Shown: positions 1,949 to 19,614, numbered from the stretch's first letter. The stretch is DNA of 64,000 nt from Bacteroidales bacterium (GCA_030637515.1 DAOWGM010000095.1:8171-72170); one strand, 5' to 3'. The notes: generated by a model from the letters alone, not told the origin. A program made the numbers and translations.

Positions 1949-1994
1949 AAATGAGAAAAGTAGTTTTAGTTAAATTCATTTAATACAAGCAGTT

Positions 1995-2939: not shown

Positions 2940-2970
2940 ACATTATTAATTAAAATAAAAACATAGAATT

Positions 2971-3363
2971 ATGGATCCAAATTATTTTTTTATCGATTGG
3001 GAAAGATTAGGCGAAGTACTAATCACCATTATTGTTTTTTCATTCTTTCTTGAAAGAGCATTAGCACCCCTTTTTGAATCAAATTTTTTCATAAAACGTT
3101 TTAAAGGTAAAAGCTTAAAGGAGCTTATTGCAGTTATTTGCGGATTAATTATTTGTTGGATATGGAAATTTGATGCCCTCAGTTTTGTTTTTCCAATGGA
3201 AAAAACTACAATTATCGGTTATGTTATAACTGGTGCTATAATTGCAGGTGGAAGCAAAGCTTCAATTGCTCTATTTTTGAATTTAATGAATGTCAAAAGT
3301 GCAGCTCAGAAATTAAAAGATGCAGAAAAAGAAGCAGAACTAAAGAAATTGGCTGGCAAGTAA
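2971..3363 (+). CDS. Small membrane protein, unknown function
   Basis: 130-aa ORF with about 3 hydrophobic helices and a Lys/Glu-rich C-terminal tail. No recognisable motif. Confidence 0.4.
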   Translation: MDPNYFFIDWERLGEVLITIIVFSFFLERALAPLFESNFFIKRFKGKSLKELIAVICGLIICWIWKFDALSFVFPMEKTTIIGYVITGAIIAGGSKASIALFLNLMNVKSAAQKLKDAEKEAELKKLAGK

Positions 3364-3379
3364 CCTACACTATTTAACT

Positions 3380-4441
3380 ATGAAAAAGATTTTATTAATT
3401 ATTGTAATACTCTTACTAAAAATAAATCTTTATGCAGATTATTTAGAGGTAAGAGTAAATGTTGGCATTAAAAATGAGCCGACAAGTAATTCTGAAGTAA
3501 TTTACAAAGCAACAGCAGGAGACCTGTTTCTCTTGCTTGATAGCGCTCAACAAACTAATGGTTATTATCATATTCAAATAGATGGAATTTTAAATGGTTG
3601 GGTTTATCGTACAATGGTTAGATTAAATAAAGGCGATTTACCTGAAATTGAAAACGAAAAACCTATTCCAGCATCTGTCTATGGAATTGGTCAAATTCCT
3701 AACGATTATTACCAAGGTATTGAATCTCTTTCAGGAGAGAATCTCAAAAAGCAACTTCATCTGATTATTCGTAATCATACAGTTTTTTCTTATGATAAAG
3801 TTTGGGACATACTCTCTGAAACAGATAAAGATCCATATAATCCTGAAAATGTAATTATATTGTATAATAAACGTTCACAAAAGGCTATTCACCGTGATAG
3901 AGGAACTTCATTCGATTATACTGCGCATGGATATAATCTAAATGATTCTTGGAATAGAGAGCATGTGTGGCCTAAATCTCATGGCTTTCCAAATCCTAAA
4001 GATACAGCATACACTGATCTTCATCATTTGCGCCCTGCTGATCGATCAACAAACTCAGCACGCAATACGCGTTCATTTGATGAGTGCATGAATATCTATT
4101 TTGATAATGCAAAAACAATCGAAACAGAATGTCATACTTCTAGTTCAAATTGGGCTTGGGAACCACCAAAAGAAATTAAAGGAGATGTTGCTCGAATGAT
4201 TTTTTATATGTCTGTTCGTTACGAAGGAACTGATTATAATCTCGAAATTCTGGATCAAGTATTACTAAAAGGTTCAAAAGAACCTACAATTGGGAAATTA
4301 TCAACTCTTATACGTTGGCATAAAGAGGATCCTGTCGATAATTGGGAACGTCAACGTAATCACGTTATTTATACAAAATATCAAAAGAACAGAAATCCTT
4401 TTATCGATCATCCCGAATGGGTCAGTCTAATTTGGAATTAA
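3380..4441 (+). CDS. Secreted endonuclease I family nuclease with N-terminal SH3b-like domain
   Basis: Signal peptide MKKILLIIVILLLKINLYA. REHVWPKSHGF, DLHHLRPADRSTNSARN and NRNPFIDHPEW match conserved endonuclease I (EndA/Vvn, PF04231) blocks. The N-terminal about 80 aa (GWVYRTMV) looks SH3b-like. Confidence 0.7.
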   Translation: MKKILLIIVILLLKINLYADYLEVRVNVGIKNEPTSNSEVIYKATAGDLFLLLDSAQQTNGYYHIQIDGILNGWVYRTMVRLNKGDLPEIENEKPIPASVYGIGQIPNDYYQGIESLSGENLKKQLHLIIRNHTVFSYDKVWDILSETDKDPYNPENVIILYNKRSQKAIHRDRGTSFDYTAHGYNLNDSWNREHVWPKSHGFPNPKDTAYTDLHHLRPADRSTNSARNTRSFDECMNIYFDNAKTIETECHTSSSNWAWEPPKEIKGDVARMIFYMSVRYEGTDYNLEILDQVLLKGSKEPTIGKLSTLIRWHKEDPVDNWERQRNHVIYTKYQKNRNPFIDHPEWVSLIWN

Positions 4442-4471
4442 AACATCTATTTCCAACTAAGTATTTAAAAA

Positions 4472-5011
4472 ATGGTAAAATATAAAGAAATAATTAAAAG
4501 ATTTAAACAGTACAAAATCACAGGTATTAGCTCAGCGGTTTTTGGAATATCTTGGGAAACAAAAAAATCGGATAAGAATAAAATAAAAAAAATTCTTCTT
4601 TATTTGGAAGATAGAAGAGTGCTGTATTTACAGTATGAGCCACATATGAAGAAAGCTAATTGTGTCCAGTCTGTATTAAATATTAGAGAATATTTATCGA
4701 CAGAAATAGCAAAACTCTCTGATGAATCTGATTTAATACCAGTTTTAAGATATCTAAGAGCATCATGTCGTAAATTTCTTTTAAGAATAGAACCATACCA
4801 ATATGAACTTAATAACTTACCGAAAGATGTTCCAATTGAAGCAAAATTTATTTTTTCAACTGCATTAGGAGAACTAAGATCCAGTTTTGGAGATATTATT
4901 GCGCTTTTTTGCGTAAAATATGAGTTAGATATTAGCGATGAGCTAGGATCAATTCTACCAATTGAAGATGATGATAAACTGCTTAATGATACAAAAACTG
5001 CATTATCATGA
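4472..5011 (+). CDS. Hypothetical protein, first gene of a 3-gene cassette
   Basis: 179-aa ORF with no recognised motif. Its stop overlaps the next ATG (ATGA, 5008-5011), implying translational coupling to the EEP nuclease gene. Confidence 0.4.
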   Translation: MVKYKEIIKRFKQYKITGISSAVFGISWETKKSDKNKIKKILLYLEDRRVLYLQYEPHMKKANCVQSVLNIREYLSTEIAKLSDESDLIPVLRYLRASCRKFLLRIEPYQYELNNLPKDVPIEAKFIFSTALGELRSSFGDIIALFCVKYELDISDELGSILPIEDDDKLLNDTKTALS

Positions 5012-5712
5012 AAATTATCACTTGGAATTGCAGAATGAAATATCGTGAAAAAGCAGATGAAATTCTGACTTTACAACCTGATATTGTAGTGGTTCCTGAA
5101 TGCGAAAATAAAGAAAGACTAAAATTTGGTATGTCTACTAAAAAGCCATGTGATTCTCTTTGGTTTGGTGAAAACGTAAATAAAGGAATTGGAATCTTCT
5201 CATATTCAAATTTTAAATTTAAACTTCATAGTTCGTATAATAAAAACTTTAAATATTTTATTCCTATTGAAGTTTATTCTAAAAAAAACACTTTTAACTT
5301 ACTGATTGTATGGAACAATCCTGGCAATAAGGATTCTAATTATATTCGTCAAGCCACGAATGCATTAAAATTTTATGTACCTAAGTTAGACAACAAAAGA
5401 TTAATAATCATTGGAGATTTCAATTCTAATAATTTTTGGGATAAACCGCAGGGTGAGTTTAAACATAATGATTTAGTCTCTTATTTAGAGAAAGATTTTA
5501 AAATATTTAGTCTATATCATAAATATTATAAAGAAGATCAAGGAAATGAATCTATACCAACAAGTTATTGGAATAATAAGCCTTATCATGTAGATTATTG
5601 TTTTGCTTCATCTGATTTCAGCAAAAATGCAGAAAGTGTTGAGATTGGAGATTATAAACGTTGGAGAAAATTTAGTGATCATATGCCAATGATAATTAAT
5701 ATAAACGATTAG
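5008..5712 (+). CDS. Endonuclease/exonuclease/phosphatase (EEP) family protein
   Basis: MKIITWNC..., DIVVVPE, IIIGDFNSNN and FSDHMPMI match the ordered N/E/D/H catalytic motifs of the EEP fold. It is a minimal single-domain protein. Confidence 0.7.
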   Translation: MKIITWNCRMKYREKADEILTLQPDIVVVPECENKERLKFGMSTKKPCDSLWFGENVNKGIGIFSYSNFKFKLHSSYNKNFKYFIPIEVYSKKNTFNLLIVWNNPGNKDSNYIRQATNALKFYVPKLDNKRLIIIGDFNSNNFWDKPQGEFKHNDLVSYLEKDFKIFSLYHKYYKEDQGNESIPTSYWNNKPYHVDYCFASSDFSKNAESVEIGDYKRWRKFSDHMPMIININD

Positions 5713-5730
5713 TCAATAAAACACATTATC

Positions 5731-6363
5731 ATGGAAGAAAGTAAAACTTTTTTAGACTACTTAATTATTCTATCACCTGTTGCAATAAGTATATTCGCCT
5801 TAGCCTTGTCTTACCTTGCTAATCTTAAGTTATCAAAACAAAAGGATAAGGAATTACAAAAAGACTATAAGCTTAAAGAGACTGATTTGCTTGAAAAGAT
5901 TAAAGAATATGAGCGTAAAGAAATTTATAAAAAACTTAACGAATTTTATAGTCCATTATTGATATTGAGAAGTACAAGCAAAGCATTGCACGACACATTT
6001 AAAAATGGAAGAAAATTTAGAACATTAACTGAATTACTTGGTGGTTCATCATATGATGGAAATGACCTTGTTGTATTAAATGAAATATTGGTTATAGGAA
6101 ATAAGTGTAAGGAAATTATTTTTAATAATTCAGGTTTAATTGATGATGTAAGACTTAGGGATACGCATATTCCAAGTTTATTAAATCATTTTTTGATAAT
6201 TCAAAAAGCTTTTGATGGCAAAATAAAAGATGATGTCCAAAGATTTGAAAATTATGTCTTTCCAAATGAAATTGATGATATTTTAAAGGAAAAAGTTGAA
6301 GAATTACAACAAAGGCTTATAACATTAAATAGAGTAGACAGAGAATCTTTCGATGAAAGCTAA
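5731..6363 (+). CDS. N-terminally membrane-anchored hypothetical protein
   Basis: 210 aa with one N-terminal TM helix (LIILSPVAISIFALALSYLANL), then a coiled-coil-like Lys/Glu-rich segment. It starts 19 nt after the EEP gene. Confidence 0.4.
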   Translation: MEESKTFLDYLIILSPVAISIFALALSYLANLKLSKQKDKELQKDYKLKETDLLEKIKEYERKEIYKKLNEFYSPLLILRSTSKALHDTFKNGRKFRTLTELLGGSSYDGNDLVVLNEILVIGNKCKEIIFNNSGLIDDVRLRDTHIPSLLNHFLIIQKAFDGKIKDDVQRFENYVFPNEIDDILKEKVEELQQRLITLNRVDRESFDES

Positions 6364-6726
6364 ACCATCTTTTAAGTTATTAAAGACAACATTTGATGAT
6401 TCTCTAACAATTTTGAATCGGTTTGCAAAACTCGTGTCTATTGCAGATCTTTCATCAATAAGAATTATTGTTTTATTTAAAGCTTTTGCATATCCAACTT
6501 CTAAGGTCAGACCATATCCAGATGGATTGTCCTTTTCCATATATACTAAGATAATGTCTGCTTTTTTAACATAATGCAAATCCCATGTTGTATACTGCTC
6601 AGGTATACTCAGATGATGATCCCTTGGATTTAAAAAAATAAATTTATCCTCAAATTGTTGGATAACTTTATCTTGCCATCCAGATTTCATTCCGCCTGCT
6701 AAATAAACTTTTTCTTTAAGATTCAT
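6325..6726 (-). CDS. Nucleoside 2-deoxyribosyltransferase-like (NDT/Rcl/YtoQ-fold) protein
   Basis: KVYLAGGMKSGWQ at the N-terminus and GYGLTLEVGYAKAL (conserved Glu in the ...E.G.A motif) are typical of PF05014-like proteins. It overlaps the upstream membrane-protein gene by 11 nt. Confidence 0.6.
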   Translation of the reverse strand: MNLKEKVYLAGGMKSGWQDKVIQQFEDKFIFLNPRDHHLSIPEQYTTWDLHYVKKADIILVYMEKDNPSGYGLTLEVGYAKALNKTIILIDERSAIDTSFANRFKIVRESSNVVFNNLKDGLAFIERFSVYSI

Positions 6727-7378
6727 TGCCTTTTGTTTTTGTTTTAGAAAGATAAATTGAAAAAGGGATATTCATTGATATTGCATAAAATCTCTTCCAG
6801 CCAATCCTAAGTGTAAATGCTAAAATAAAAAATACTATTAGTATTGCCCAGTTCACAAAATAGTCGTTAAAAAATTCGATACAATAAGAAGATAAGTTAA
6901 AAACAATTCCTATTACTAAAGAAATAAGTACTATTGTATGCAATTGATTAAATACTTCTGCTCTAAACATAAAAATATAAACCTTTTTATCAGCTTCTGG
7001 CACAACCGACATAGCATAATTTCTAAATGACTTGAAATGACTTAATTTTTGATCATCTTCCTTTGTTTCTTCTTCAATAATTTTAGAAACTAATTTATAA
7101 TTATCCTTACTTGAAAGATCATCAAGTACTGTGTCTACAGAAGAAATTGGAAGTTTTTTTGATAGTGTATTAAACCAGTTGTCTTTTAACAATGTAAAAG
7201 AATGAATTACATAACCAATAACATATGACATAATAATCATAATATAAACTTCCGATAAAAAACCAGTAGAAACACCAAACATTTTTTCAATAATTATTAT
7301 TGCTATAAAGCCTGGTACAAAAAAACCTATTATATCAAAGAAAAACTCTTTTAACGATGCAACAATATCAAATTTCAT
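6716..7378 (-). CDS. Polytopic membrane protein, unknown function
   Basis: 220 aa. There are about 2 N-terminal and 2 C-terminal hydrophobic helices flanking a charged soluble loop. It is translationally coupled to the NDT-like gene. Confidence 0.5.
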   Translation of the reverse strand: MKFDIVASLKEFFFDIIGFFVPGFIAIIIIEKMFGVSTGFLSEVYIMIIMSYVIGYVIHSFTLLKDNWFNTLSKKLPISSVDTVLDDLSSKDNYKLVSKIIEEETKEDDQKLSHFKSFRNYAMSVVPEADKKVYIFMFRAEVFNQLHTIVLISLVIGIVFNLSSYCIEFFNDYFVNWAILIVFFILAFTLRIGWKRFYAISMNIPFSIYLSKTKTKGNES

Positions 7379-7472
7379 GTTTTTACACTTTTAGTTCAAT
7401 ATTTATGTTGTTATTTAATCAATTTACTTTTTAGATTTATCTCTCAGTCTATTTAAATTGTATATTAATGTT

Positions 7473-8411
7473 TTAAATATATAGTTCTTTTGCAATATGA
7501 TCAATATAATATTCAATATCTGGAGTTGTTGCTCTGATTGACTTGGAATAGCATAACATTTGAGATATTAAATCAAATAACATAGAACTGTTGCTAAACT
7601 CCGTTTTAAAATCACTTTCTTTAATTAAACCAATAGGAGCATTTAAATTGAAAATAAACCAGAATAGTTTACCGAGCATAAAAATATCTGACTGATTGTC
7701 AATACAACAATCAAAGTTAAGACTTGATTCTTCAGTTAAAAACTTATTCATAGCCTCAGGAGATAGCCAACCATAAGGACCTATTTTCTCGCCTATATCA
7801 TCATAATCTGTATCTCGATATTGAATTAAACCCAAATCTCCAATTTTCCATTTAAAAGTTTCATCATTTAGAAATAATAAAACATTATCAGGCTTTATAT
7901 CTCTATGGTATATTTCTTCTTTATGAAGATTCTTTATTGCATGAAATATATCTCTACAAAGCCTAAAACGCTCTTGTAAATCCAAATCTTGATGTTCATG
8001 TAAATATTCCTTTAAATCTGTATCTGCTTTTTCCATAACATAATATGGAAACTCTTTATTATTAATCTCTATTATCCCGTCGAAATCAATTTGTATTATA
8101 TTTTCATATTTATCCTTAACCTCATACAATGCTTTTATTTCACTTAAAAACCTATTATATCTTTTACCTAGTCTTTTTGATTCTTTTTTAGTCTTAGGTC
8201 TGAAATAATTTGAAAATTTAATAGCTTTTTCAATATTCGTCTTATTATCAATTAATTTAAATACATTTGAATTACCACCTTTTGAGTTTAGAAATTCTTC
8301 TTTCAATGGATAAATAAATAGCTTTTCATCGTCAACAGTTATGAAATTTTTTTCATTTTCAAGGTCGTCTCCATTTATTGATAAAGTTATCTTGTTATAC
8401 TTATATTCCAT
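7473..8411 (-). CDS. Hanks-type (eukaryotic-like) Ser/Thr protein kinase
   Basis: All core subdomains are visible: SKGGNSNVFK (Gly loop), KAIKF (VAIK Lys), LSEIKAL (Glu), YHRDIKPDNVLL (catalytic loop), IGDLGL (DFG-like), GWLSPEAM (APE-like) and SDIFMLGKLFW. The start lies 2 nt after the DUF262 stop. Confidence 0.8.
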   Translation of the reverse strand: MEYKYNKITLSINGDDLENEKNFITVDDEKLFIYPLKEEFLNSKGGNSNVFKLIDNKTNIEKAIKFSNYFRPKTKKESKRLGKRYNRFLSEIKALYEVKDKYENIIQIDFDGIIEINNKEFPYYVMEKADTDLKEYLHEHQDLDLQERFRLCRDIFHAIKNLHKEEIYHRDIKPDNVLLFLNDETFKWKIGDLGLIQYRDTDYDDIGEKIGPYGWLSPEAMNKFLTEESSLNFDCCIDNQSDIFMLGKLFWFIFNLNAPIGLIKESDFKTEFSNSSMLFDLISQMLCYSKSIRATTPDIEYYIDHIAKELYI

Positions 8412-8413
8412 CT

Positions 8414-9511
8414 TTATAACTTTTCTATTGGTAAAAGATAATAACCATTTAATGTTACTAATTCTTCATTTTTAATGTTAAAATAAATCATAATTTCTTC
8501 AAAATCATTCACATATTCTTCTTCTTCTAAAATGTAATCATTCTTTTGATTAAACATGATGGTTTCAAGTAGGCTTAACCTTAAATCTCTTGCTTTTTTA
8601 GAATTTGATTGAGAAACACAGGTGAATGCATAATTTTGGAATGCAAAACAATCTTCATTTGATGGTACTATCTTAGAATCAACTTTTACTAAAATATTAT
8701 AAAATAACTCAAATAATTTCTCACTTAGTTTTATGTATTTATGACAAAATGAAAATAAAGTGTAAAAATCATTTTTCTGTTTATATCGAGTCTGTTTAAG
8801 AGGGTAGAAATTATTAAATACTCTAATAATTTCTATTGTACTCCAAAACTTCTCAGTTAAACTATTTAGACTTTCAGGCTCATCTTTTAAATCTATAAAT
8901 AAGGTATCAACATGCTTTTTTTTATCTGTTATTCCATAATTAATGATTGAAAGTAATTCACCAATAAAATCTTGGTCCATTAATCTATCTTGACTTGCGC
9001 CTGAGAATAATTCAAGTTCCTTGAACTTTTCATCTTCACTTATTTCTTCGATTAAATTTTGAACGGGATTTTCAAAATGTTCCGATCTCAATATCTCAGG
9101 TCGATTTAATTTTGCACCAAATTTATTAACATCATGATAAAAATTTACAACTAATTTCTGATCACTAACTTCAGAAAGAATTACAATTATTAATTTGTAT
9201 TCATTCAAAAAATAATTCTCATCTGAATCCTTTATATAGTCTTTATTTGTGTCTGGATAAAGTCCTGCCTTATATCCTAAAAAAGTTCTAGTCCTTTGTT
9301 GCCCATCCACCATTTCATAATTCCCATCTGTATTTAAATATAAGAAAAAGTTAGGTAAAGGAAATTTCTTTTTAATTGTATCAATTAATCTTTTCTTTGC
9401 TGGTAATGACCATATGTCATTTCTTTGATAAGGTGGATTAAGGTTTAGTTTGTTTTCATCATAGAGTTTAATTAAACTCGATATTGACCAGCTTTCTACA
9501 GTATATTTCAT
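8414..9511 (-). CDS. DUF262 (ParB-like/GmrSD N-terminal type) domain protein lacking a DUF1524/HNH nuclease half
   Basis: PPYQRNDIWS...KKRLIDTIKKKFPLPNFFL...VDGQQRTRT is the DUF262 signature, including the DGQQR motif. The remaining about 200 aa are helical with no His-Me/HNH-like motif seen. Confidence 0.75.
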   Translation of the reverse strand: MKYTVESWSISSLIKLYDENKLNLNPPYQRNDIWSLPAKKRLIDTIKKKFPLPNFFLYLNTDGNYEMVDGQQRTRTFLGYKAGLYPDTNKDYIKDSDENYFLNEYKLIIVILSEVSDQKLVVNFYHDVNKFGAKLNRPEILRSEHFENPVQNLIEEISEDEKFKELELFSGASQDRLMDQDFIGELLSIINYGITDKKKHVDTLFIDLKDEPESLNSLTEKFWSTIEIIRVFNNFYPLKQTRYKQKNDFYTLFSFCHKYIKLSEKLFELFYNILVKVDSKIVPSNEDCFAFQNYAFTCVSQSNSKKARDLRLSLLETIMFNQKNDYILEEEEYVNDFEEIMIYFNIKNEELVTLNGYYLLPIEKL

Positions 9512-9515
9512 TTTT

Positions 9516-10622
9516 TTATATAAAACAGTTTACACAATCGACAGAGTCTTCTTCTAAAATATCGATTAGTTTATTTGATTTTGGCTTATTCAGTTTATTT
9601 TTAATTTTTGCTAAATGCTCTCTTTTAATTTGTTTTACTCGATCTGGTTTAATTATATCTTTTAAACTTTCACTATCCATCCACGTATATCCATCTTTCT
9701 CATACTTCATTGCAAGATAAAATAAATCTCTGTGACGTTCATAAAGCCATATCCATTCTATTTTTCTTTGATAAAAGCAAAAGTAACAACCCGATCTACT
9801 CCTATTATATGTGCCTACCTCTCCATCTATTTCATATTCCACAGGAGTATAATAATCGGGAACCTTTACACCATTTTCTTTAAACAAATTATACACATCA
9901 TCTATAACAACAACGTCCTCATTATTTAATAATGGATAACCATCTATTAAAGCAATAGGTAATTCAGATTCTTTAAAGAAAGCAAATAAGACTTTATTAA
10001 ATACTGATATACTTATATTAAGTAAATCATTCATTTTCTGACTAAATAAATATTTTTTAGACTGTGGCTGTTCTAATATCTCAACTAATCTATCTATGTC
10101 CTGTTTGTCAGCAAACTTTTTATACAAATTAGTGACCTTAGAAATATTTGAATTATGAAGAACTTTATTTGTTACTTCAATACTCCACATTTGTTTTCTG
10201 AAAGGAAATATTGATTGAATATTTGATTTAGTTGAAACATATCCTTCTCGGTCTTCATCCCCACGAATAGCAACATATGATATAACAGGATCATTCCCTA
10301 CCCATTTCTCAAAAGGTTCCAGTTTTAATTTTTTTGTACACCATCTAGCCATAGAAGATGGTAAAAATCCATTGAAAATATCCATATAATGATCAAAAGG
10401 ATTCTTGTGACTAGCATTTTCCAATCTTGCTACTTTCTTACCTAAAAACACCTCTAATTCATTAATTAGGTCGTAAGTTTCATCTAATTCTTTCCCTGTG
10501 TCTGTAAAATAATACTCTAACTCAATTTCAGGATAATGAAGTTTCATATAGATAGCTAATGCTGCACTATCTTTACCTCCTGAAATACCCATTACATGTC
10601 TCACTTTTTTACTCATCATCAA
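9516..10622 (-). CDS. sspD: PAPS-reductase/PP-loop ATP pyrophosphatase family protein, SspD-like
   Basis: PP-loop GISGGKDSAALAI near the N-terminus and a C-terminal Cys cluster (RSGCYFCFYQ, DCVNC). It sits in a gene context with DUF4007 and a large ATPase. Confidence 0.65.
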   Translation of the reverse strand: MMMSKKVRHVMGISGGKDSAALAIYMKLHYPEIELEYYFTDTGKELDETYDLINELEVFLGKKVARLENASHKNPFDHYMDIFNGFLPSSMARWCTKKLKLEPFEKWVGNDPVISYVAIRGDEDREGYVSTKSNIQSIFPFRKQMWSIEVTNKVLHNSNISKVTNLYKKFADKQDIDRLVEILEQPQSKKYLFSQKMNDLLNISISVFNKVLFAFFKESELPIALIDGYPLLNNEDVVVIDDVYNLFKENGVKVPDYYTPVEYEIDGEVGTYNRSRSGCYFCFYQRKIEWIWLYERHRDLFYLAMKYEKDGYTWMDSESLKDIIKPDRVKQIKREHLAKIKNKLNKPKSNKLIDILEEDSVDCVNCFI

Positions 10623-13600
10623 TCTGATCTTGCAATAATTTTGTTAATAGGTAAATATTTATTTTCTTATCTTCTTTTAGTAATTCTTTAATTTGAATTT
10701 CTAAGGTAACAATTTCTTTTGTTTTATTTTTAGGTAATCGAATTAACTTTTCCTGAACTCCTTTTACAAAAGTTGTAATTTCTAATTTTAAATATTCTTC
10801 CTTGTTTTGATCAATATCTTTTTGTTTACTTATATCTGTTAAATTATCCAATTCATGAATAATAGCCTTTAAACGATCTAATAAGATTTTTTCTTCTGTA
10901 TCATTAATTGTTTCTAAAGATTTATTCATTAAAGCCATGCCTAATGAATTAATCCAAGACTTACGATCATCAAGAGAAGTTGAAATTCTTTGATAGAATA
11001 CTTTTTGTTTTGTATTTAACGAATGAATTTTTAGTTTTTTATATCTTTTTTGTAATAACAGTTTATTATCTGGGAAATTTAAATCTTGTCCTAGGATTTC
11101 TCTATTTAAGTATTCTTCAATCCTATTAATTAAATTATCGAATGTAGAGCTTAACTCTCTTACAGCGTTCTTAAGCGAGATTGTAAACTCCTCTAAAACA
11201 TTATTGTCTTTATCAAAATCGTTAATACTATAACCCAGAGCTCTTGGGATTTCATCAAAGAACATTTTTTTCGGATCGGTTGAATCAATGATGGCTTCTC
11301 TTAAATTTTTTGCCTCTTTTGAAATATTTTCTGTGTTTTTAGTATATTGAACTAAACCTCTATAAAAAGTCAAGAACGGTTTTACAGTTTCAATAAAACT
11401 CTCGGTTGTTGGCTTTTCTTCTTCAATTTGATTTAAAAAGTACCTGTAATTATTAAAAATCTTGAGTTTTTCTTTTGTAAGGTAGAAACTTTGAATTCTA
11501 TATTTTTGGGGTTGTCTTAATGCAACGTCAAGTGTTTCTTCATTTAAATATGGAATAAAGTCAGTTCCTTCATAAATTGCAAATTCGTTTCTTTTTGCAA
11601 TTAAATAAATTTGAATCCAAAATTCAATAAATCCATCTTTTAATCTTAAGGGCTTATTCTTTAATCGTTCTATTAATTCAATTAAAGACCTTTTATCATC
11701 ATTACAATCTTTTAAAAATTGATCGCATTCATTCCATAAATATTTAAAAGAATCATCTATTGGCTCGCTTAAAACGAATTTCCCTTTTTTATTCTTATGA
11801 ATTCCTGTGTTTTTCAATAATGCTAGATATATTGTTTTTTCAGGGGGATAAGTATTTGAATCAAAACCAAGATCCTTTTTGCTCTCATTTTCGAGAAGTT
11901 GTTTAATTAACTTCTTCCTAGCGGTTGAAATAGCGGCAGAAACTTTCGTTTTATTTACCATTTCGTTTCTAAAAATAGGAGTTCCACTATATATATCTTC
12001 ACAAATATTAGATAAAAACTTATTCATTGCTTTTTGCGAACCTATCTTAATAACCGATCCATTATAATACCAGCTGATATAATTTGAATTATATAATTCG
12101 TTAATAAAAACACTATTTAATTCATCAACATGATGTTTAAACATGTCTGCTAATTCACGTTGAACAATCTTATCATCAGGATATTTTTCCTTTACAAATC
12201 GAATTTTTTCAATCTCCCAAATTAATGATTGTAGCTTTTTTGTCTCGTGGAAATAACCAAATAAAATAGCATTTTTACATTTAGATGAAATTTTCTTGAT
12301 TTCATCTTCATCAATATTCGAATTGAGTATTATATTAATAACACCATCACTAATTCCTTCAATATCCTCAATTTGAATAGCTTGTTCTGTAAGTTCGAAT
12401 GTAAAATACCGTGGTGTCCCTAATTTGTAATATGCAGCTTTGGCAAGTACAATTGGAAAAGTAAAATACTTTTGCAGATAATTAATTACAACTGTATCAC
12501 GTTTAGTTTCTTTCTCTGCATCAATTAATTCTGCATCAATTTTAACATCAGTACCTTCAAATAAAATATATCTTTCATTATATGCTCTATATCTTATAAT
12601 ACTCTTTTTACTAAGATCATCTATTATCTTTTCAGGCTTACTAATTCCTAACGCATATTTTGAATAAGTTGTTAGAAATTCGTAATTAATTTTTACACCA
12701 GCTTTATGAAAGATATTTAATAATCCTATCGTTTTAATTATTTTCAAATAATTCTCTATATCTTCTGTAAATTCAGTTTCAGCTCTTTCAATTGCTATTT
12801 TTATACTACTCCATTGTGTAAATTCAGAATTGTATTGAGAGTTTAGATAATTGTAATAATTATGAATTAAATAGTCATATACACATGATGCATTAAAATA
12901 TGGATTCTTTTTGTCGAAATCTCTTAATCCCAAATAATCATGGCTTTCAATAAAAGTAAATAAAGACCTTTCATTTTGTCCATATTTCTGCAATGCTTGA
13001 GTAAGTATGGCTGCGGCAAGGATATCAAAAGGATAAAGGTTTTGAGCATTTTCGTAAGAAAAGTAATCTTTCAATGGAAATGCACCCGAAGATTCAATTG
13101 CATTATACAATTCCTTTTGTTCTTTAGGGCTAATAGTATTGTTAAAATCTTCTTGACCTAACCTTTCAGATGAAAGATAAAGTAACTGCTCAACAGGTTC
13201 ATTAAAATTTATTTCAATTAATCTGCCCTTTACCTTATCCCATTCATTCCTTTGGGTTTTGCTTAATCCAAAGGCATATGTACTGAACGATTGGTGCAAA
13301 GATGTAATTAGAATTATATTCTTGTCTTTATCATTTACATATTCAGCCAGTTGTTGTATAAAATACATCTCTTCATCAGGCGAGTTCTTAGCAGCATATT
13401 CCAAAAATTTCCCAAATTCATCGATTACTATTACCCAAGCTGTATTAGATTTTTTAAGCTTAGAATAATAGTTGTCAAGTTTTTTCCATAAATCATCTGA
13501 TTTACTTGCAGTATTATTAATTTCATCAGAAATCGTTTCTCGCAATGATGCGTATTCACCGACAATATTTGTAAAATCAAAATTTTTAATATTTGAGAAT

Positions 13601-13839
13601 ATACCATTCTCATTTATAAAATAATCAGCATTCCCGTACATTACCTTTTGCAATGCTAAAATAAATGCAGATTTACCTGTACCATAAGAACCAATTAAAG
13701 TAAATGACCTAGTCCCTTGACTAAATCCATTTACTATTTTGTTAAATGCTTCTTGACCATTGTTAGTGGGGATGTAATCTAATTCAGTTCCTTTATCTCT
13801 AACAATATTTACAGATGGAGAAAAATGTTTAATTTGCAT
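10609..13839 (-). CDS. sspC: Large P-loop ATPase, SspC-like
   Basis: Walker A is IGSYGTGKSAF and Walker B-like is AWVIVIDEFGKF, followed by a long helical C-terminal region. It overlaps both neighbours (11 nt and 14 nt). Confidence 0.55.
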   Translation of the reverse strand: MQIKHFSPSVNIVRDKGTELDYIPTNNGQEAFNKIVNGFSQGTRSFTLIGSYGTGKSAFILALQKVMYGNADYFINENGIFSNIKNFDFTNIVGEYASLRETISDEINNTASKSDDLWKKLDNYYSKLKKSNTAWVIVIDEFGKFLEYAAKNSPDEEMYFIQQLAEYVNDKDKNIILITSLHQSFSTYAFGLSKTQRNEWDKVKGRLIEINFNEPVEQLLYLSSERLGQEDFNNTISPKEQKELYNAIESSGAFPLKDYFSYENAQNLYPFDILAAAILTQALQKYGQNERSLFTFIESHDYLGLRDFDKKNPYFNASCVYDYLIHNYYNYLNSQYNSEFTQWSSIKIAIERAETEFTEDIENYLKIIKTIGLLNIFHKAGVKINYEFLTTYSKYALGISKPEKIIDDLSKKSIIRYRAYNERYILFEGTDVKIDAELIDAEKETKRDTVVINYLQKYFTFPIVLAKAAYYKLGTPRYFTFELTEQAIQIEDIEGISDGVINIILNSNIDEDEIKKISSKCKNAILFGYFHETKKLQSLIWEIEKIRFVKEKYPDDKIVQRELADMFKHHVDELNSVFINELYNSNYISWYYNGSVIKIGSQKAMNKFLSNICEDIYSGTPIFRNEMVNKTKVSAAISTARKKLIKQLLENESKKDLGFDSNTYPPEKTIYLALLKNTGIHKNKKGKFVLSEPIDDSFKYLWNECDQFLKDCNDDKRSLIELIERLKNKPLRLKDGFIEFWIQIYLIAKRNEFAIYEGTDFIPYLNEETLDVALRQPQKYRIQSFYLTKEKLKIFNNYRYFLNQIEEEKPTTESFIETVKPFLTFYRGLVQYTKNTENISKEAKNLREAIIDSTDPKKMFFDEIPRALGYSINDFDKDNNVLEEFTISLKNAVRELSSTFDNLINRIEEYLNREILGQDLNFPDNKLLLQKRYKKLKIHSLNTKQKVFYQRISTSLDDRKSWINSLGMALMNKSLETINDTEEKILLDRLKAIIHELDNLTDISKQKDIDQNKEEYLKLEITTFVKGVQEKLIRLPKNKTKEIVTLEIQIKELLKEDKKINIYLLTKLLQDQIDDE

Positions 13840-14719
13840 AATAATCTCTTAAAACGTCCCACTTATCAATTTTACTCTTAAAACTAAGTATATTCTTACC
13901 AGCATCTTCTTTATACACAATACCGTCATATAATTGTTCTATTTCCAATATTTTATTATGTAATCCATTTGGATTAAGCGCAAAAACTAATTCTGGGGAA
14001 TCAACACCCTTTTCTAAATCATTTAATATAATACTAGTCGATTTAGGATTTTGGTCAAGAATAGTAAATAGAACTATATGTGCTGGTAAATCATTTCTCG
14101 ATGAACTTTCAATACTATAATATTCTTTAGTTTTTTTATCTTGATTTTTAACAATGGATTTGTCTAGTAATTTAAGTTCTTTAAATAATCCAGACATTTC
14201 TTCTTCAAATTCACCCTTAGAAATCTTATAATCAGGCTTTATATAATTACGTATTAAAACACTAATATCTCTACTGATAGTGTTCTCATTATATAAATTC
14301 TTATTTACTTGTAAACATTTTCTTTTAAGGAAGTTATCCAGTTGTTCAAGAGTAAATTCTGTTCTCTCTTTCCGAAACTCATTAAAGAATAATGAATAAA
14401 TAGAAGCGTATTTACTTTTTATCAATTGATAATGTAATAACCAGATTGTTCCAATATCTTCAATATATTGGTCATATCCAGTTTCCCTGTTAAAGAGTTC
14501 TCCACCTAAACGACTAGGAACATTGTTTTTTTCAACCAATCCAAGTGCTTTTAACCAAAAAGAAATAGATGTAACCATGTTTTTACCTACACCAAGTTCA
14601 ATTACAGCTTCTTCTTTACTAAACTCATTCCCATTAGCAATAAAATCATATCCCTTTTTCGACCAGAACGTACGACAAATAAACGACTCATGTCCTGAAA
14701 ACTTCAAACTATGTTCCAT
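13829..14719 (-). CDS. sspB: DUF4007-family protein, SspB-like
   Basis: The N-terminus KFSGHESFICRTFWSKKGYDF...GKNMVTSISFWLKALGL matches my recollection of the DUF4007 signature (F.GHE.F..R..W..K). It is the first gene of the coupled operon. Confidence 0.55.
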   Translation of the reverse strand: MEHSLKFSGHESFICRTFWSKKGYDFIANGNEFSKEEAVIELGVGKNMVTSISFWLKALGLVEKNNVPSRLGGELFNRETGYDQYIEDIGTIWLLHYQLIKSKYASIYSLFFNEFRKERTEFTLEQLDNFLKRKCLQVNKNLYNENTISRDISVLIRNYIKPDYKISKGEFEEEMSGLFKELKLLDKSIVKNQDKKTKEYYSIESSSRNDLPAHIVLFTILDQNPKSTSIILNDLEKGVDSPELVFALNPNGLHNKILEIEQLYDGIVYKEDAGKNILSFKSKIDKWDVLRDYYAN

Positions 14720-15295
14720 AAAACAAAAGTATAATTAATCTAAAATGTATACTAATAATCTAACATTAAATAATTAACTATAATTAAATGGATTGTTAAT
14801 AAGCCAAATTATATTATAAAATAAAAAAGTTATATTATAATATAAACTTTGCTTATAACTAAATAAGTTTATTTCCAAATATAATTCTGCAAAATTATTC
14901 AATGTAAAACAGTCTTAGATTTTTTGATTTTAATTGGAATTTCAATAAAATTTAATACAAATATGAAAATGTTAAGTGAGCATTATTGAATATTAAATTA
15001 TTGTTTTATAGTAAAATTACAGCGACCCCAAGTCGGATATTTATTTGTATTCATTTATTAACTATTATCAATATATAAACTCTAATAAAATGTAGTTAAA
15101 AAATATTCTCTTTCCTTACTATAGATTTCCTATGAAACAATAAGGTTTTCCAATATAAAATACGTACATATTATAACTTTTAAGTATTTAGTAAATAAAA
15201 CCCATACATCAATAACTTTTCATTCAAAATAGAAGGTATTTGTATATAAATAATGAATAAATGCTATTATAGGAATATAATACATTTATTAAAAT

Positions 15296-15343
15296 AGAAT
15301 TTCATGAAATTCTTTATTAAAGCATAGCTATTTGCTATGCTTT
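15296..15343. repeat. Two adjacent perfect palindromes in a gene-free AT-rich region
   Basis: There is an 18-nt perfect palindrome agaatttcatgaaattct (15296-15313). There is also a hairpin aaagcatagc-tattt-gctatgcttt (15319-15343). Confidence 0.6.
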
Positions 15344-15996
15344 ATTATTCTTTCTTAAATTTAATCGCCAGGTCCTTTTTTTACCTAATCCAACAATTAT
15401 TGCATCAAACTCCTTTATCTCTTTCTTGTATTTATATGCTTCATCTAATACTGTATTAGCAATCTTGCTTTTATTACTAATAAAACAACTATAAAGAGAT
15501 TAACTAATACTTCAATCCTTAAAATACTATGATTTTTATATGTTTTCATATAGAAGTTAATAATGAAAAATGAGTGTAAAACCTAACTTTTTGAATCTCT
15601 GGTCCTGGTAATCCATAGACGCAAACTAAAACAGTCCATGTCGTATAATGGATGATACACTTATTTCACTAACAGTCATTTGAAATTTACCATATTTCAG
15701 GTACGAGAATAAGCTTACACCTTATAAAATCTTATCTAAAACAAATAGTATAATTTATATTCCTTAATCAAATAAAAACTTACATTTAAATATAAGTGAA
15801 TTCAATTTGGAGATAATTGTAGAAGTTAAAATATCCATACAAACACTTCTTTTAATCTTACATTATAAGATAAAAATTTTAAAATAAACAATTCTACACC
15901 CCTGTTAACTGCAACTTGATCATTCAGATTATAGAGCACAGCAGAATAAAAACTAATTAAAAAAGTTCAGTGATCAATTAAGCAATTTTTATCCAT

Positions 15997-17142
15997 TTAA
16001 TACATCGAAGTTCCAAGTTGGAACATTGGCATGTACATGGCAATAAGGATAACTCCAACAAGCAAACCAACAAAAATAATCATGATGGGTTCAAGCACAC
16101 TGCTTAGCATTCCAATTCGGTGCTCCAATTCTGTGGAATATTGATCGTTTAAATTGTTAAATACTGTATCGAGCTGATTAATTTCTTCTGCTACTTTTGT
16201 AAGTGAAACTGTTCGTTTGTCAAATATAGGAAATTGCTCCATGCTCTTATGCAATGGTTTCCCATGCAGAACATCCTTTTCGATAGTTGTAAGTGCTTCC
16301 TGATACGGATAGAATGTAATCATATTTTTCACAAGCTGAATTGCCCTTAACATAGGCGTTTTTGAACTAATAAGCAATGCCATAGATTGGCAAAAGCGTG
16401 CCAGATATATTTTCTGAACCAAAACTCCTGCTACAGGAATTCGTAATAATAGTTTGGATGAAAAATTCCGATACCAGTTCTTCTTACGAACCAGAAATAA
16501 AACAATTGTTATGGTTATAATTATTAGGAATACCAATCCCAGGTATTCTGAAAAAACATTCGACAGCTTTACAACAGCCTTTGTAAGTGCCGGCAAATCG
16601 CCCTTGAATCTTTTAAATACATCGACAAACATAGGTACAATAAAGTTCATCATAAAAATTACTGCACCTATTGCTGTTACCAATACCAACAAAGGATAGG
16701 TTAATGCACTTGAGAATTGTTTTTTTTGCTTAATCTTTTTAGAGAAAAATATGGTAAGGTCTTTTAAAACATTGTTTAGTTTTCCGCTTTCTTCACCAAT
16801 TTTAATACTAAAATATTCGTATGGAGTAAACATCCCTGATTGTTCCATTGCATCTGAAAGACTTACACCTTCTAAAATATGATTCATCAGGTTTTCAAAA
16901 ATCTCTTTCTCTTTCTTTTTAGTTTGCTCGGCAACTACAATATCCATTGCTGTGCGCACATCTGTTCCAGATGATAACAGGATACTTAATTCGGAATAAA
17001 ACTGCTCCTTTTTCTGGTCTTTTAAGCCTTTCTTGCCAAAAGATATATCCTTATTCAGAAATTCGAAGACTTGCTTTAAATCGCTGCCTTTTGATTGCTG
17101 CGAAGCATTCTTCTTTTTTATATCTTTTAAATCGAGGCTCAT
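15997..17142 (-). CDS. Type II secretion / type IV pilus platform protein (GspF/PilC family)
   Basis: 381 aa with two repeated T2SS-F-type halves, each a soluble helical segment followed by TM helices. It ends in the typical ...AMYMPMFQLGTSM. Confidence 0.85.
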   Translation of the reverse strand: MSLDLKDIKKKNASQQSKGSDLKQVFEFLNKDISFGKKGLKDQKKEQFYSELSILLSSGTDVRTAMDIVVAEQTKKKEKEIFENLMNHILEGVSLSDAMEQSGMFTPYEYFSIKIGEESGKLNNVLKDLTIFFSKKIKQKKQFSSALTYPLLVLVTAIGAVIFMMNFIVPMFVDVFKRFKGDLPALTKAVVKLSNVFSEYLGLVFLIIITITIVLFLVRKKNWYRNFSSKLLLRIPVAGVLVQKIYLARFCQSMALLISSKTPMLRAIQLVKNMITFYPYQEALTTIEKDVLHGKPLHKSMEQFPIFDKRTVSLTKVAEEINQLDTVFNNLNDQYSTELEHRIGMLSSVLEPIMIIFVGLLVGVILIAMYMPMFQLGTSMY

Positions 17143-17621
17143 TATTTAAAAACCTGTTTGTTAATGTTGCTTTCGTTTTGGTAATCTTTATAAAATGCAA
17201 ACGGAAGTATTTCCTTATGATACTTTACATTAAATGATAAATGTGTAAGCATTCCGGTATTACCGTTTTGCAATTTATATTCCAAATTGGAATATTCCAG
17301 TGCAAAGGTATCGGTTTTTTCCTGATATTTTCTAAGAATTCCAACATCACTAAATTCGTAAATACATTCACTTGTTTTGTTTTTAAAACGTAATTCGTAA
17401 ATGGAATATTCAATATTATCATATCGTTCAAAATCGGTGTTTAAAACCGATCTGAGCTGAATTAATTCTGCATTGGTATCGTAATCTTTTAATATTCGCT
17501 GGTTGGTTTGTGTAAGCTGAAAATACAGATTTAAAGCCATAACAATAATAATACTTGTAATGGCAAGAGCCACAAGTATTTCAACAAAAGTATATGCGCT
17601 TATCTTTCTCATGTATTTCAA
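17142..17621 (-). CDS. Pseudopilin/minor pilin with prepilin-type N-terminal motif
   Basis: KISA/YTFVEILVALAITSIIIV is a class III signal peptide-like motif with Glu at +5, followed by a hydrophobic helix. Confidence 0.65.
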   Translation of the reverse strand: MKYMRKISAYTFVEILVALAITSIIIVMALNLYFQLTQTNQRILKDYDTNAELIQLRSVLNTDFERYDNIEYSIYELRFKNKTSECIYEFSDVGILRKYQEKTDTFALEYSNLEYKLQNGNTGMLTHLSFNVKYHKEILPFAFYKDYQNESNINKQVFK

Positions 17622-17695
17622 TTGGCCTTCTCGTTATGATTTTTTGTTTTACCCCAACCCAATTGGGAACCAAAAAATCAAAACTATATTATTTT

Positions 17696-18064
17696 CTACT
17701 TACTTTTCTCAATAATAATGAGCTCGTTTTGCTCAAATAATTTTTGGTTACGTGAATTATACGCACTGTAATTTATCTGAAACAATTCATCGTATTTTTC
17801 ATATTCAGAAACGATACGTTTAACCGTAATATTACCAAATGTAAAATCCTGATCGTAATATTCTTTTTCCGAAACAGTTTGTACCATAACATTGCTCGTT
17901 GCAAAGTAAGCTTTTGTTCTTAGACTGTTATTGCTGTTCTTACTAATATTCAGAATGATTAAAAAAGCCATTGAAAAAGTAATGGTAATTATAAGCATAG
18001 CAACAATGGTTTCAACCAAAGTTGATGCTTGTATTTTATGACTTAGCCTTAGTTTAAACTGCAT
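17696..18064 (-). CDS. Pseudopilin/minor pilin-like protein
   Basis: KIQA/STLVETIVAMLIITITF is a prepilin-like N-terminus with Glu at +5. Confidence 0.55.
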   Translation of the reverse strand: MQFKLRLSHKIQASTLVETIVAMLIITITFSMAFLIILNISKNSNNSLRTKAYFATSNVMVQTVSEKEYYDQDFTFGNITVKRIVSEYEKYDELFQINYSAYNSRNQKLFEQNELIIIEKSK

Positions 18065-18117: not shown

Positions 18118-18129
18118 CCGATAGAATTG

Positions 18130-18156
18130 GTCATGCTGAGCTTGTCGAAGTATGAC
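18130..18156 (+). repeat. REP-like palindromic element (GTCATGCTGAG...TCGAAGTATGAC type)
   Basis: The sequence is gtcatgctgagcttgtcgaagtatgac. Related copies lie at 19540-19565, 19590-19614, 29728-29751, 29787-29833 and 37417-37467. Confidence 0.7.
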
Positions 18157-19539
18157 AATGCATGTAATTTTCAATATTTCTTTTTAATGATAAAGCTATC
18201 ATTTACAAAAGGATTTTTATCTTCGCAACTTTTTAATTTAATATAAAAATTGTGAAACGTACTTATCATCCTTATATTCCTATTCTTTATAATTTAGGAG
18301 TTCTCGAAAAAGGTTTTGTACAGGAAATATCTTCGAGCACTTTATACGAATGGAAAATCAAAGACTTTGATTCTCTCTATGGAATCGATCAGGTTACGAA
18401 GCATGTTCCTCAATTTGATTTGTTAAATGACTACATTACAAAAAAGAGTTTATCCAAAATAATAAATGCTACTTACAGAATTTATCATGTATATTCTAAA
18501 ATCTATTCTGAAATTAGATTTAAACGAACTAGTATTGAAAAATACCAGAAACAGATTGTTTGTACCATTGAAAATATTAAAGGAACAATTGGTTTTGATA
18601 AGGCTCTTAAAGCATTTCATATTACTTACCAACAATTTTACAGGTGGAAAAATAAAGTAAACTGTAGTCTGAACGAAAAATTTCTTTGCCGAAAAAGGCA
18701 TCCATTACAACTTTCAGTAAAAGAACTGAGAATAGTTAAATCTTATTTATTTAATCCTGAATATACATTCTGGCCAATAGCATCGATATATTATATGATG
18801 TTACGTAACAAACATGCCTTTATGAGTTTGACAACCTTTTATAAGTACGCCAGATTATTTAGTTTTAAACGACAAAAGCCTGATTGTAGAAATAAAAAAT
18901 ACTCTACAGGTATACGAGCAAGTAAACCTTTTGAAATTTTACATGCTGATGTCACAATTTTTAAACCCTTAGATAATACTAAAGTTTATATTTACTTTAT
19001 TGTTGATAATTTCTCAAGAAACATACTTGGATGGAAAGCTTCTTTAAAGCTAAGTGCCAAAACCTCATTCGAAAACTTACAGGAAGTTTACAATAAATAT
19101 AATATAAAAAGCAAAACTGGCGCAGTTCTAATGACCGATGATGGTAGTGAAAATAAAGCCGAAGTGGATGAGTATATTCAAAGCATTCATATGAAAAGAT
19201 TAATTGCTCAAAAAGATATTATTTATTCGAACAGTATGGTTGAATCTGCTTTTTACAGATTAAAATATCAATTTCTATTCACAAAAAATCTATCTGACTT
19301 TCCTGAAACATACAAGTATCTTGAAATTGCAATTCCTGAATACAAAAACAGACCACTTTCTGCTTTATTTGGGTTAACTCCCAACGAAGTTTGTGAAGGT
19401 GCAATTCCTGATATGAATGGTTTTAAACCACAAAAACAATATTCTAAAACCATTCGGATTATAGAAAACCAGCAATGTAAAGAATGTGAATAAACACATT
19501 CAAATTGAATTCCTTCCTATTCCCATAAGTTAAAAATTT
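18157..19539 (+). mobile_element. IS element (boundaries approximate)
   Basis: A single DDE transposase gene of opposite orientation interrupts an otherwise co-directional locus. I could not define clear terminal inverted repeats. The coordinates are simply the interval between flanking REP-like copies. Confidence 0.4.
18252..19493 (+). CDS. DDE transposase with integrase-core (rve) domain, IS3/IS481 superfamily
   Basis: LHADVTIFK (D), DNFSRNILGWK, MTDDGSEN (D) and NSMVESAFYRLK (E) fit the rve DDE triad order. It has a GTG start and an N-terminal HTH-like region. Confidence 0.8.
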   Translation: MKRTYHPYIPILYNLGVLEKGFVQEISSSTLYEWKIKDFDSLYGIDQVTKHVPQFDLLNDYITKKSLSKIINATYRIYHVYSKIYSEIRFKRTSIEKYQKQIVCTIENIKGTIGFDKALKAFHITYQQFYRWKNKVNCSLNEKFLCRKRHPLQLSVKELRIVKSYLFNPEYTFWPIASIYYMMLRNKHAFMSLTTFYKYARLFSFKRQKPDCRNKKYSTGIRASKPFEILHADVTIFKPLDNTKVYIYFIVDNFSRNILGWKASLKLSAKTSFENLQEVYNKYNIKSKTGAVLMTDDGSENKAEVDEYIQSIHMKRLIAQKDIIYSNSMVESAFYRLKYQFLFTKNLSDFPETYKYLEIAIPEYKNRPLSALFGLTPNEVCEGAIPDMNGFKPQKQYSKTIRIIENQQCKECE

Positions 19540-19614
19540 GTCATGCTGAGTTAATCGAAGCATAGGCAAATTCCCTAATTTTAAAAGCTCATCCTTCGAC
19601 ATGCTCAGGATGAC
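19540..19614. repeat. Pair of inverted REP-like elements
   Basis: gtcatgctgagttaatcgaagcatag (19540-19565) and its inverted relative catccttcgacatgctcaggatgac (19590-19614). Confidence 0.7.

Follow-up and report, generated by a model that had tools for sequence, protein, structure and literature searches.

An SspBCD-type locus in a Bacteroidales bacterium and its relatives carries a nuclease-less DUF262 protein and a Hanks-type kinase directly after sspD

The locus described here lies in a 64,000-nucleotide (nt) stretch of DNA from a Bacteroidales bacterium (hereafter the window, with all coordinates counted from its start) and is built around five closely packed minus-strand genes: the three modification genes of an Ssp system, associated with phosphorothioate (PT) marking of the DNA backbone, followed by genes for a DUF262-only protein and a Ser/Thr kinase of the Hanks type. 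The first, sspB (13829-14719), encodes a DNA-binding subunit of the triple winged helix-turn-helix (wHTH) type; sspC (10609-13839) encodes a 1076-amino-acid (aa) P-loop ATPase of the ORC/Cdc6 type, similar to BrxC; and sspD (9516-10622) encodes a PAPS-reductase-like PP-loop enzyme with C-terminal cysteine clusters. The fourth gene (8414-9511) specifies the DUF262-only protein, of 365 aa and here proposed to be a PT or DNA sensor, and the fifth (7473-8411) a stand-alone kinase of 312 aa, proposed to be the output or effector. All five open reading frames (ORFs) are intact and retain their catalytic motifs. By ORF coordinates, sspB and sspC overlap by 11 nt, and sspC and sspD by 14 nt when sspD starts at TTG, an overlap that may instead be 11 or 8 nt because two ATG codons directly follow that TTG; the gaps between sspD and the DUF262 gene and between the DUF262 and kinase genes are 4 and 2 nt, respectively. 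The original prediction had described precisely this packed set of five genes with these spacings, and the ORFs are found exactly there. Chance is a poor explanation for the packing: among 26 complete loci of other species, 23 show the same gene order and equally close spacing.

SspB, SspC and SspD are bona fide members of the Ssp families, as had been proposed. SspB matches Pfam DUF4007 (7.6e-71) over the whole of the profile (1-288/288) and the PADLOC SspB model at 1.9e-98, while SspC matches its PADLOC model with E=0 and 1257 bits, residues 14-1051 covering profile positions 2-1038/1039. SspC retains the Walker A motif GSYGTGKS, and has a secondary PADLOC match to BrxC-PglY (1e-66). SspD matches PADLOC SspD (3.5e-91) and Pfam PAPS_reduct (3.2e-6, above the cut-off), carries an SGGKDS PP-loop together with the motifs CYFCF and CVNCF, and has more than 7900 homologs at E<=1e-20. 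The three genes adjoin one another, run in the same direction and stand in the canonical Ssp order. As the original prediction had it, the window holds no sspA-like gene: a tblastn search of the 64 kb with SspA of a related locus found no cysteine desulfurase (best E 0.12). SspA-like genes do lie within 10 kb in seven of the orthologous loci defined below, and housekeeping IscS commonly substitutes for sspA (PMC13251355; PMC12914056).

The protein encoded directly after sspD matches GmrSD_N (DUF262) in Pfam (1.1e-15), a match confined to residues 15-146, with no Pfam match past residue 146. Its domain plan comprises a ParB-DUF262 NTPase domain (about residues 1-135) and a helical region (about residues 137-365). 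Among 24 family members aligned at 41-69% identity, the DGQQR motif at residues 69-73 (D69-GQQR-73) is invariant, as are P26, Y28, Q29 and R30, and the C-terminal half is well conserved; no histidine is invariant at any position, which is incompatible with a DUF1524 His-Me/HNH active site. An AlphaFold model of the whole protein (predicted local distance difference test, pLDDT, 90.8) shows an N-terminal domain of the ParB/sulfiredoxin type, beyond which there are only helices and, at the end, a short hairpin. When this model was compared with the PDB by Foldseek, the matches were ParB, Noc, KorB, sulfiredoxin, BrxU and, weakly, SspE (E 0.23), with no nuclease fold among them. Because the ParB domain could have dominated that search, residues 137-365 were also modelled alone (pLDDT 88, predicted template-modelling score 0.87); the model is all-helical, and its search of the PDB gave no match better than E=1.2. 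The absence of an invariant histidine, the helical models and the lack of any nuclease fold match together rule out a cryptic DUF1524/HNH nuclease, in agreement with the earlier view of this protein as one with a DGQQR motif and no nuclease half.

Does this nuclease-less protein retain the PT-reading surface of SspE? In the SspE of Streptomyces (StSspE), mutagenesis places Y30/Q31 in a PT-reading hydrophobic patch that R32 lines (PMC9646914), and in the E. coli protein (EcSspE) the corresponding patch was likewise mapped to P61/Y63/Q64 (PMC13251355). The invariant P-x-Y-Q-R of the present DUF262 family resembles these residues at motif level only, because no residue-level alignment to SspE chains was obtained: a profile search against the solved SspE chains gave, as its sole match, the N-terminus of BrxU (E=0.046), and the N-terminal domain searched alone gave nothing relevant. 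By PADLOC, the best match of the DUF262 protein is NsnA (2.7e-27, residues 5-289 on profile positions 48-340/385), and its nearest named relative belongs to an uncultured Draconibacterium (64% identity). A second group of proteins (P0409, P0415-P0418 and others), 420-460 aa in length, matches positions 1-340 of the DUF262 profile and has about 100 extra C-terminal residues.

The kinase is well above the Pfam Pkinase threshold (3.9e-23; 82.6 bits against a cut-off of 31.7) and is predicted from its sequence to be catalytically competent. Across 20 family members at 44-78% identity, the following are invariant: K65 (of AIK), E91, H169-RDIKPDN-176, D192-LG (192-194), S217-PE (217-219), D242 and R293. 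The original claim that every Hanks subdomain is intact therefore stands as regards the catalytic residues, and is slightly generous as regards the glycine loop, which reads atypically as SKGGNSNVF, and the DFG and APE motifs, which read DLG and SPE. Apart from a conserved extension of about 40 residues at the N-terminus, the protein consists of the kinase domain alone, with no accessory domain. In the PADLOC defence library, the kinase domain, and only that domain, matches mad6 (4e-31), PDC-M71A, PD-T4-6, MkoA, Stk2 and PglW; the NCBIfam scores lie far under the cut-offs for PglW (33.9/990), MAD6 (44.7/460) and PknB_PASTA (67.2/450), and the kinase is consequently assigned to none of these named families. 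The candidate system PDC-M71 was also considered and rejected, since only the kinase matches it (PDC-M71A), the DUF262 protein matching no PDC-M71 partner in PADLOC.

How general is this arrangement? A DUF262 profile scan using one genome per species (GTDB) returned 58 loci, onto which the window proteins were mapped by tblastn; 37 of these carry a DUF262 ortholog at >=35% identity and are treated as orthologous. The kinase gene lies directly downstream of the DUF262 gene in all 34 that are readable downstream (34/34), 33 of the 35 assessable ones contain sspD or the whole of sspBCD, and sspB orthologs head the array in 26. Where all five ORFs are complete, the order sspB-C-D-DUF262-kinase, co-directional and with overlaps or gaps of a few bases, is seen in 23 of 26 loci. 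The association with ssp genes elsewhere that the original prediction called for is thus observed. Most of the hosts belong to the Bacteroidota (Sphingobacteriales, Cytophagales, Chitinophagales, Flavobacteriales, Bacteroidales), with Ignavibacteriota and Aminicenantes represented as well; short contigs from metagenome-assembled genomes (MAGs) labelled WOR-3, Paceibacterota, Brocadia and Rhodospirillaceae also occur, and these labels are treated with caution. A metagenome scan that began from the kinase gave four further orthologs, with DUF262 directly upstream in 4/4 and sspD present in three; only 4 of its 80 loci were orthologous because the generic HRDIKPDN pattern swamped the scan. No orthologs of the pair were found on viral contigs, which indicates that it is not a phage-borne module.

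This breadth bears on the suggestion that the window holds an orphan or decaying SspBCD, whose neighbours share no function with it. That most sspBCD clusters have no recognised restriction partner (PMC8092258), and that sspA was not found in the window, would fit such a module; the five ORFs are nevertheless intact with their catalytic motifs, a missing sspA is commonly made good by IscS (PMC13251355; PMC12914056), and many species from several phyla share the array. We regard this explanation as largely refuted and highly improbable.

A different kind of evidence comes from the gene slot that follows sspD in related loci. The contexts of ten close SspD homologs (60-70% identity) were examined, all on long contigs and all outside the DUF262 hit list, and because the loci of that list were left out, the sample is biased against the kinase type. 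In three of the ten, the slot holds a gene for a DUF262 protein of 346-350 aa followed by a SIR2_2 gene (L141, 10120-12022; L143, 10112-12008; L146, 8127-10026). Two loci carry a membrane protein with a nucleoside deoxyribosyltransferase (NDT)-like protein of the Nuc_deoxyri_tr2 family (L139, L144), and one the Nuc_deoxyri_tr2 protein alone (L140). Another has a GIY-YIG protein together with a DndB-family protein (L145, 8117-9878; the DndB match is at 7.8e-18), and another a 253-aa protein of no known family with a DEDDh (RNase_T) exonuclease (L142, 10117-11438). L148, whose SspD homolog was picked blind, also carries the DUF262-kinase pair, and in L147 the slot is empty. A DUF1524-bearing SspE is found in none of the ten. 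The slot after sspD is, in other words, an effector-swapping site, occupied by kinase, SIR2, NDT-like, GIY-YIG or DEDDh exonuclease genes.

The SIR2 loci are of particular value here. SIR2 components of the ThsA, LmuA and Dsr1 type are NAD-depleting effectors, and the SIR2 proteins of the slot match just these defence-system components in PADLOC (ThsA at 5e-36, LmuA and Dsr1). The SIR2-linked and kinase-linked DUF262 proteins can be aligned over residues 1-234 only (hhalign probability 98.3%); both keep P-x-Y-Q-R, and their last ~130 residues differ. The simplest reading of an alignment limited in this way is that the two kinds of DUF262 protein have a sensor core in common and differ in a C-terminal adaptor suited to the particular effector. 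The exchange of SIR2 for kinase behind a common DUF262 core is the strongest indirect support for placing the kinase in the effector position, as the original prediction had done.

Two further minus-strand genes probably extend the locus beyond the five that were first noticed. The protein encoded at 6716-7378 (220 aa, four hydrophobic segments) is 46% identical (E 7e-52) to the product of the gene directly after sspD in L139, and a similar homolog follows sspD in L144 and lies between sspD and DUF262 in L014. The adjoining gene at 6325-6726 encodes a 133-aa NDT-like protein (Nuc_deoxyri_tr2, Pfam PF15891, 3.5e-10) that is 66% identical (E 2e-68) to the product of the L139 gene following sspD and the transmembrane (TM) gene; homologs of it stand after sspD in L140 and L144 and, in L014, within the array itself, and the motif NPSGxGLxLExG, including E76, is invariant in the family. 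From the placement of these homologs in L139 and L014, the window probably carries two Ssp-associated cassettes, DUF262-kinase and TM-NDT, with 6325-7378 as the second effector cassette. The functional locus accordingly probably extends over 6325-14719; the earlier delimitation (7473-14719) was right about the five genes and missed this pair. A further neighbour recurs beside sspBCD in the sister loci and is absent from the window: a convergent cluster of PbeA-like (2.8e-279) and PbeC-like (2.9e-25) genes (L142, 11559-18416; L143, 14951-19107; L144, 11142-17015; L145, 9881-15107; L147, 8122-13869). Pbe has been described together with Dnd in archaea, and its recurrence here suggests an Ssp-Pbe pairing.

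We think it slightly better than even, with a probability of roughly 0.55, that the locus is a conserved Ssp variant in which a split, effector-swapped analogue of SspE, namely a PT-reading ParB-like NTPase, controls a toxic or signalling kinase. In such a system, SspBCD, served by a housekeeping IscS-type desulfurase encoded elsewhere, would mark the host DNA with PT. The DUF262 protein would bind DNA and couple its PT status to NTP binding or hydrolysis, as the N-terminal domain of SspE does, with the family-specific C-terminal ~130 residues providing the dock for the kinase. A non-self state, such as Ssp sites without PT or some phage-induced disturbance, would then release or activate the kinase, which would phosphorylate host or phage proteins and bring phage replication to a halt, probably to the cell's own detriment (an output of the abortive-infection type). 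GTP hydrolysis by SspE leads to its dissociation from PT-DNA (PMC13251355). One may speculate that the PT self signal keeps the sensor cycling off the DNA, and that unmodified invading DNA would retain the sensor and turn the kinase on.

Several observations weigh against this reading, and most of them lend weight to a rival in which the DUF262-kinase pair is an autonomous two-gene defence that senses some cue other than PT (modified phage DNA, for example, as in GmrSD, Dazbog or Menshen) and is often lodged beside SspBCD only in the way that genes for defence tend to cluster or to embed in each other. In two loci, L016 and L039, the pair is found without SspB or SspC within 10 kb; in L002, where sspA adjoins sspB, it is convergent with sspDCB; and in L014, L027 and L059 other, unrelated genes are inserted between sspD and DUF262. 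These exceptions keep the autonomous pair alive as an explanation. Pairwise-divergence correlations (Mantel test, 27 taxa) point in the same direction: co-divergence is strong within SspB-SspC (rho 0.65), SspC-SspD (0.52) and DUF262-kinase (0.55), all with p<=0.001, and weak across the modules, with SspC-DUF262 at 0.36 (p 0.003), SspC-kinase at 0.32 (p 0.01), and sspD-kinase and sspB-kinase both at 0.12 and not significant. Two sub-modules defined in this way suggest a DUF262-kinase unit whose inheritance is usually, if not rigidly, linked to that of the modification unit, in the manner of restriction and modification modules. Profile searches, too, place the DUF262 protein nearer to NsnA and PD-T4-2_A than to any of the SspE models, and the sensing of modified DNA by DUF262 proteins is an established theme (PMC12065111).

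Against the autonomous pair stand the 33 of 35 loci with ssp genes and the 23 of 26 with a near-contiguous co-directional array, an association far tighter than that of an ordinary defence-island neighbourhood. That other cassettes fill the same slot in sister loci suggests, moreover, that the slot is functionally tied to SspBCD. Even in L016 (a WOR-3 MAG, 9094-12048), the pair directly follows a 293-aa BrxP-like PAPS reductase with a full PAPS_reduct domain, which may be a minimal or different sulfur-modification partner. On balance we consider an autonomous pair unlikely, though the foremost of the rivals.

Other difficulties are internal to the split-SspE reading itself. The P-x-Y-Q-R motif lies near the general DUF262 motif I (QRxxxW), and its presence is thus no proof of PT reading. 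Foldseek ranks SspE low for the DUF262 model (E 0.23), with no direct alignment to SspE chains, and no DUF262-kinase fusion occurs among the 150 best DUF262 family representatives. An abortive-infection-type output leaves unexplained how phage DNA would be told apart from unmodified host sites. Finally, that the locus installs PT, that it senses PT, that the kinase is active and that phage are held off are all things that we infer.

The other alternative of substance treats the pair as regulatory: the DUF262 protein would be a DndB-like limiter of PT modification and the kinase, by phosphorylation, would tune the activity or expression of SspBCD, just as PglW has been suggested to act on PglX in the phage growth limitation (Pgl) system. 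DndB indeed belongs to the ParB superfamily, is of comparable size and has the helical ParBDB-type domain in common with it (PMC12065111), and in L145 the slot holds a gene of the DndB family; SspC, for its part, is BrxC/PglY-like, and in Pgl or BREX type 2 an ATPase of this kind is found together with a Ser/Thr kinase (PMC12839542). Yet the DUF262 protein has no DndB match in PADLOC or NCBIfam, the partners that replace the kinase in the sister loci are SIR2 proteins of the ThsA/LmuA/Dsr type or nuclease-type genes, that is, effectors and not regulators, and the profiles that the kinase matches most closely all represent kinases of defence systems. We accordingly rate a regulatory role as doubtful, somewhat more so than an autonomous one.

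Comparison with characterized systems places the split-SspE reading in context. The closest is SspABCD-SspE (Xiong 2020, Gao 2022; PMC9646914, PMC13251355), which has the same SspB, SspC and SspD genes in the same order, may likewise lack sspA and rely on IscS, and continues with a gene for a DUF262 ParB-like NTPase bearing DGQQR and, at the PT-reading position of SspE, a Tyr-Gln(-Arg) patch (a motif-level likeness). Unlike SspE, the protein of the window has no DUF1524/HNH nickase domain and is 365 aa long as opposed to roughly 560-820 aa; its C-terminal ~130 residues are family-specific, its profile is closer to NsnA, and it is accompanied by a separate Hanks kinase. SspABCD-SspFGH (PMC8092258) likewise sets an alternative partner module on the same SspBCD core, with proteins that are unrelated to those described here, and PADLOC gives no match to SspF, SspG or SspH among the window neighbours at 431-18064.

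Menshen NsnA, PD-T4-2 and Dazbog, too, feature a nuclease-less DUF262 domain joined to a helical domain of the DNA-binding type. For NsnA, bioinformatic analysis describes this as ParB-DUF262 followed by a helical 'ParBDB' DNA-binding domain common to DndB, GmrSD and SspE (PMC12065111). The logic of Menshen, in which an exchangeable effector gene comes after the gene for the sensor, is also similar; here, however, neither the NsnB ATP-binding cassette (ABC) ATPase nor an NsnC effector lies downstream (the genes there being for the kinase, the TM protein and the NDT-like protein), and a PT module adjoins. DndB itself resembles the DUF262 protein in its ParB superfamily membership, its length, its helical C-terminal domain and the position of its gene beside PT-modification genes. 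It differs in carrying DGQHR in place of DGQQR and in having no kinase partner, besides the lack of a DndB match in PADLOC and NCBIfam noted above.

As regards the kinase, BREX type 2/Pgl and the DndF variants that carry S/T/Y kinase domains (PMC12839542, PMC10853773) similarly place a Hanks kinase beside a BrxC/SspC-type ATPase and a DNA-modification enzyme, and for the Pgl and DndF kinases the proposed role is that of a sensory hub or of a back-up effector that kills the cell (PMC12839542, PMC10853773). PglW is, however, a protein of 1400-1600 aa (NERD, pseudokinase, kinase, wHTH x3, iSTAND), the window kinase being a stand-alone protein of 312 aa; the modification in BREX type 2/Pgl is methylation and not PT, and there is no PglZ here. 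Stk2, PD-T4-6 and MAD6 of MADS are also Ser/Thr kinases serving as anti-phage effectors or transducers, and it is their profiles that the kinase domain matches best. The similarity is that of the generic kinase domain only, and none of them is paired with DUF262 or Ssp.

The surroundings of the locus may be summarized briefly. The Ssp region, at 24-28% GC, is slightly AT-richer than the remainder of the window (about 30-35%). As to island boundaries, a search for flanking repeats and for a tRNA target yielded nothing convincing. Upstream of sspB lies a 1.27-kb spacer (14720-15996; 24% GC, no ORF of >=80 aa), in which a search of Rfam gave no match and promoter and terminator patterns are no commoner than in shuffled sequence. 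Directly upstream of the Ssp locus, on the minus strand (15997-18064), are genes for a PilC/GspF-like platform protein and two prepilin-type (N_methyl) proteins, which are unrelated to Ssp. Beyond these, an rve-type integrase ORF (18252-19493, plus strand) is bracketed by imperfect 29-nt direct repeats (18125-18153 / 19535-19563; 83% identical), and 18125-19563 may represent an insertion sequence that separates the pilus genes from the large ORFs lying downstream. On the other side, three tightly packed plus-strand genes (4472-6363) converge on the Ssp locus and encode a DUF6650 protein, an Exo_endo_phos-family protein and a 210-aa protein; none has a PADLOC match, and the DUF6650 protein matches the phage family phrog_29952 (3.5e-21).

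The original prediction knew of no earlier account of this pairing, and we too met with no account of SspBCD joined to a DUF262-only protein and a kinase, or of the SIR2 variant, in the searchable literature, including the main comparative papers on Ssp, Dnd, BREX, Menshen and GmrSD, from which most subscription journals and supplementary figures are absent; an earlier passing mention of the pairing cannot be excluded. The parts are familiar, and it is the combination and the modular slot that appear to be new. In a survey by Wang et al. (2021), 83.9% of sspBCD clusters were without sspE or sspFGH; those authors predicted further partners and left their identity open (PMC8092258). The present locus and its relatives provide concrete candidate partners for such 'orphan' sspBCD, namely DUF262-kinase, DUF262-SIR2 and the other cassettes of the slot. 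PADLOC and DefenseFinder, expecting SspE or SspFGH, would miss or mislabel loci of this kind.

The wider generalization is more tentative, and we hold it at somewhat less than even odds: that the PT mark is read here by a stand-alone ParB-like NTPase with protein phosphorylation instead of cleavage as the output, and that this is one member of a 'split SspE' family, in which one PT-reading scaffold is linked by an exchangeable C-terminal adaptor to different toxic effectors, among them a Hanks kinase, a SIR2 NADase and possibly others. Should the split-SspE reading of the locus hold, it would be the first case in which a DNA-backbone modification is read out through protein phosphorylation, and SspE would turn out to be a fused version of a broader design of sensor plus effector. 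The pair would also offer a clean two-protein system in which to ask how ParB-type NTPase switches activate partner enzymes. If the wider generalization is right, Ssp would be a modular epigenetic immune system capable of abortive infection, and part of the pool of orphan sspBCD clusters would thereby be explained.

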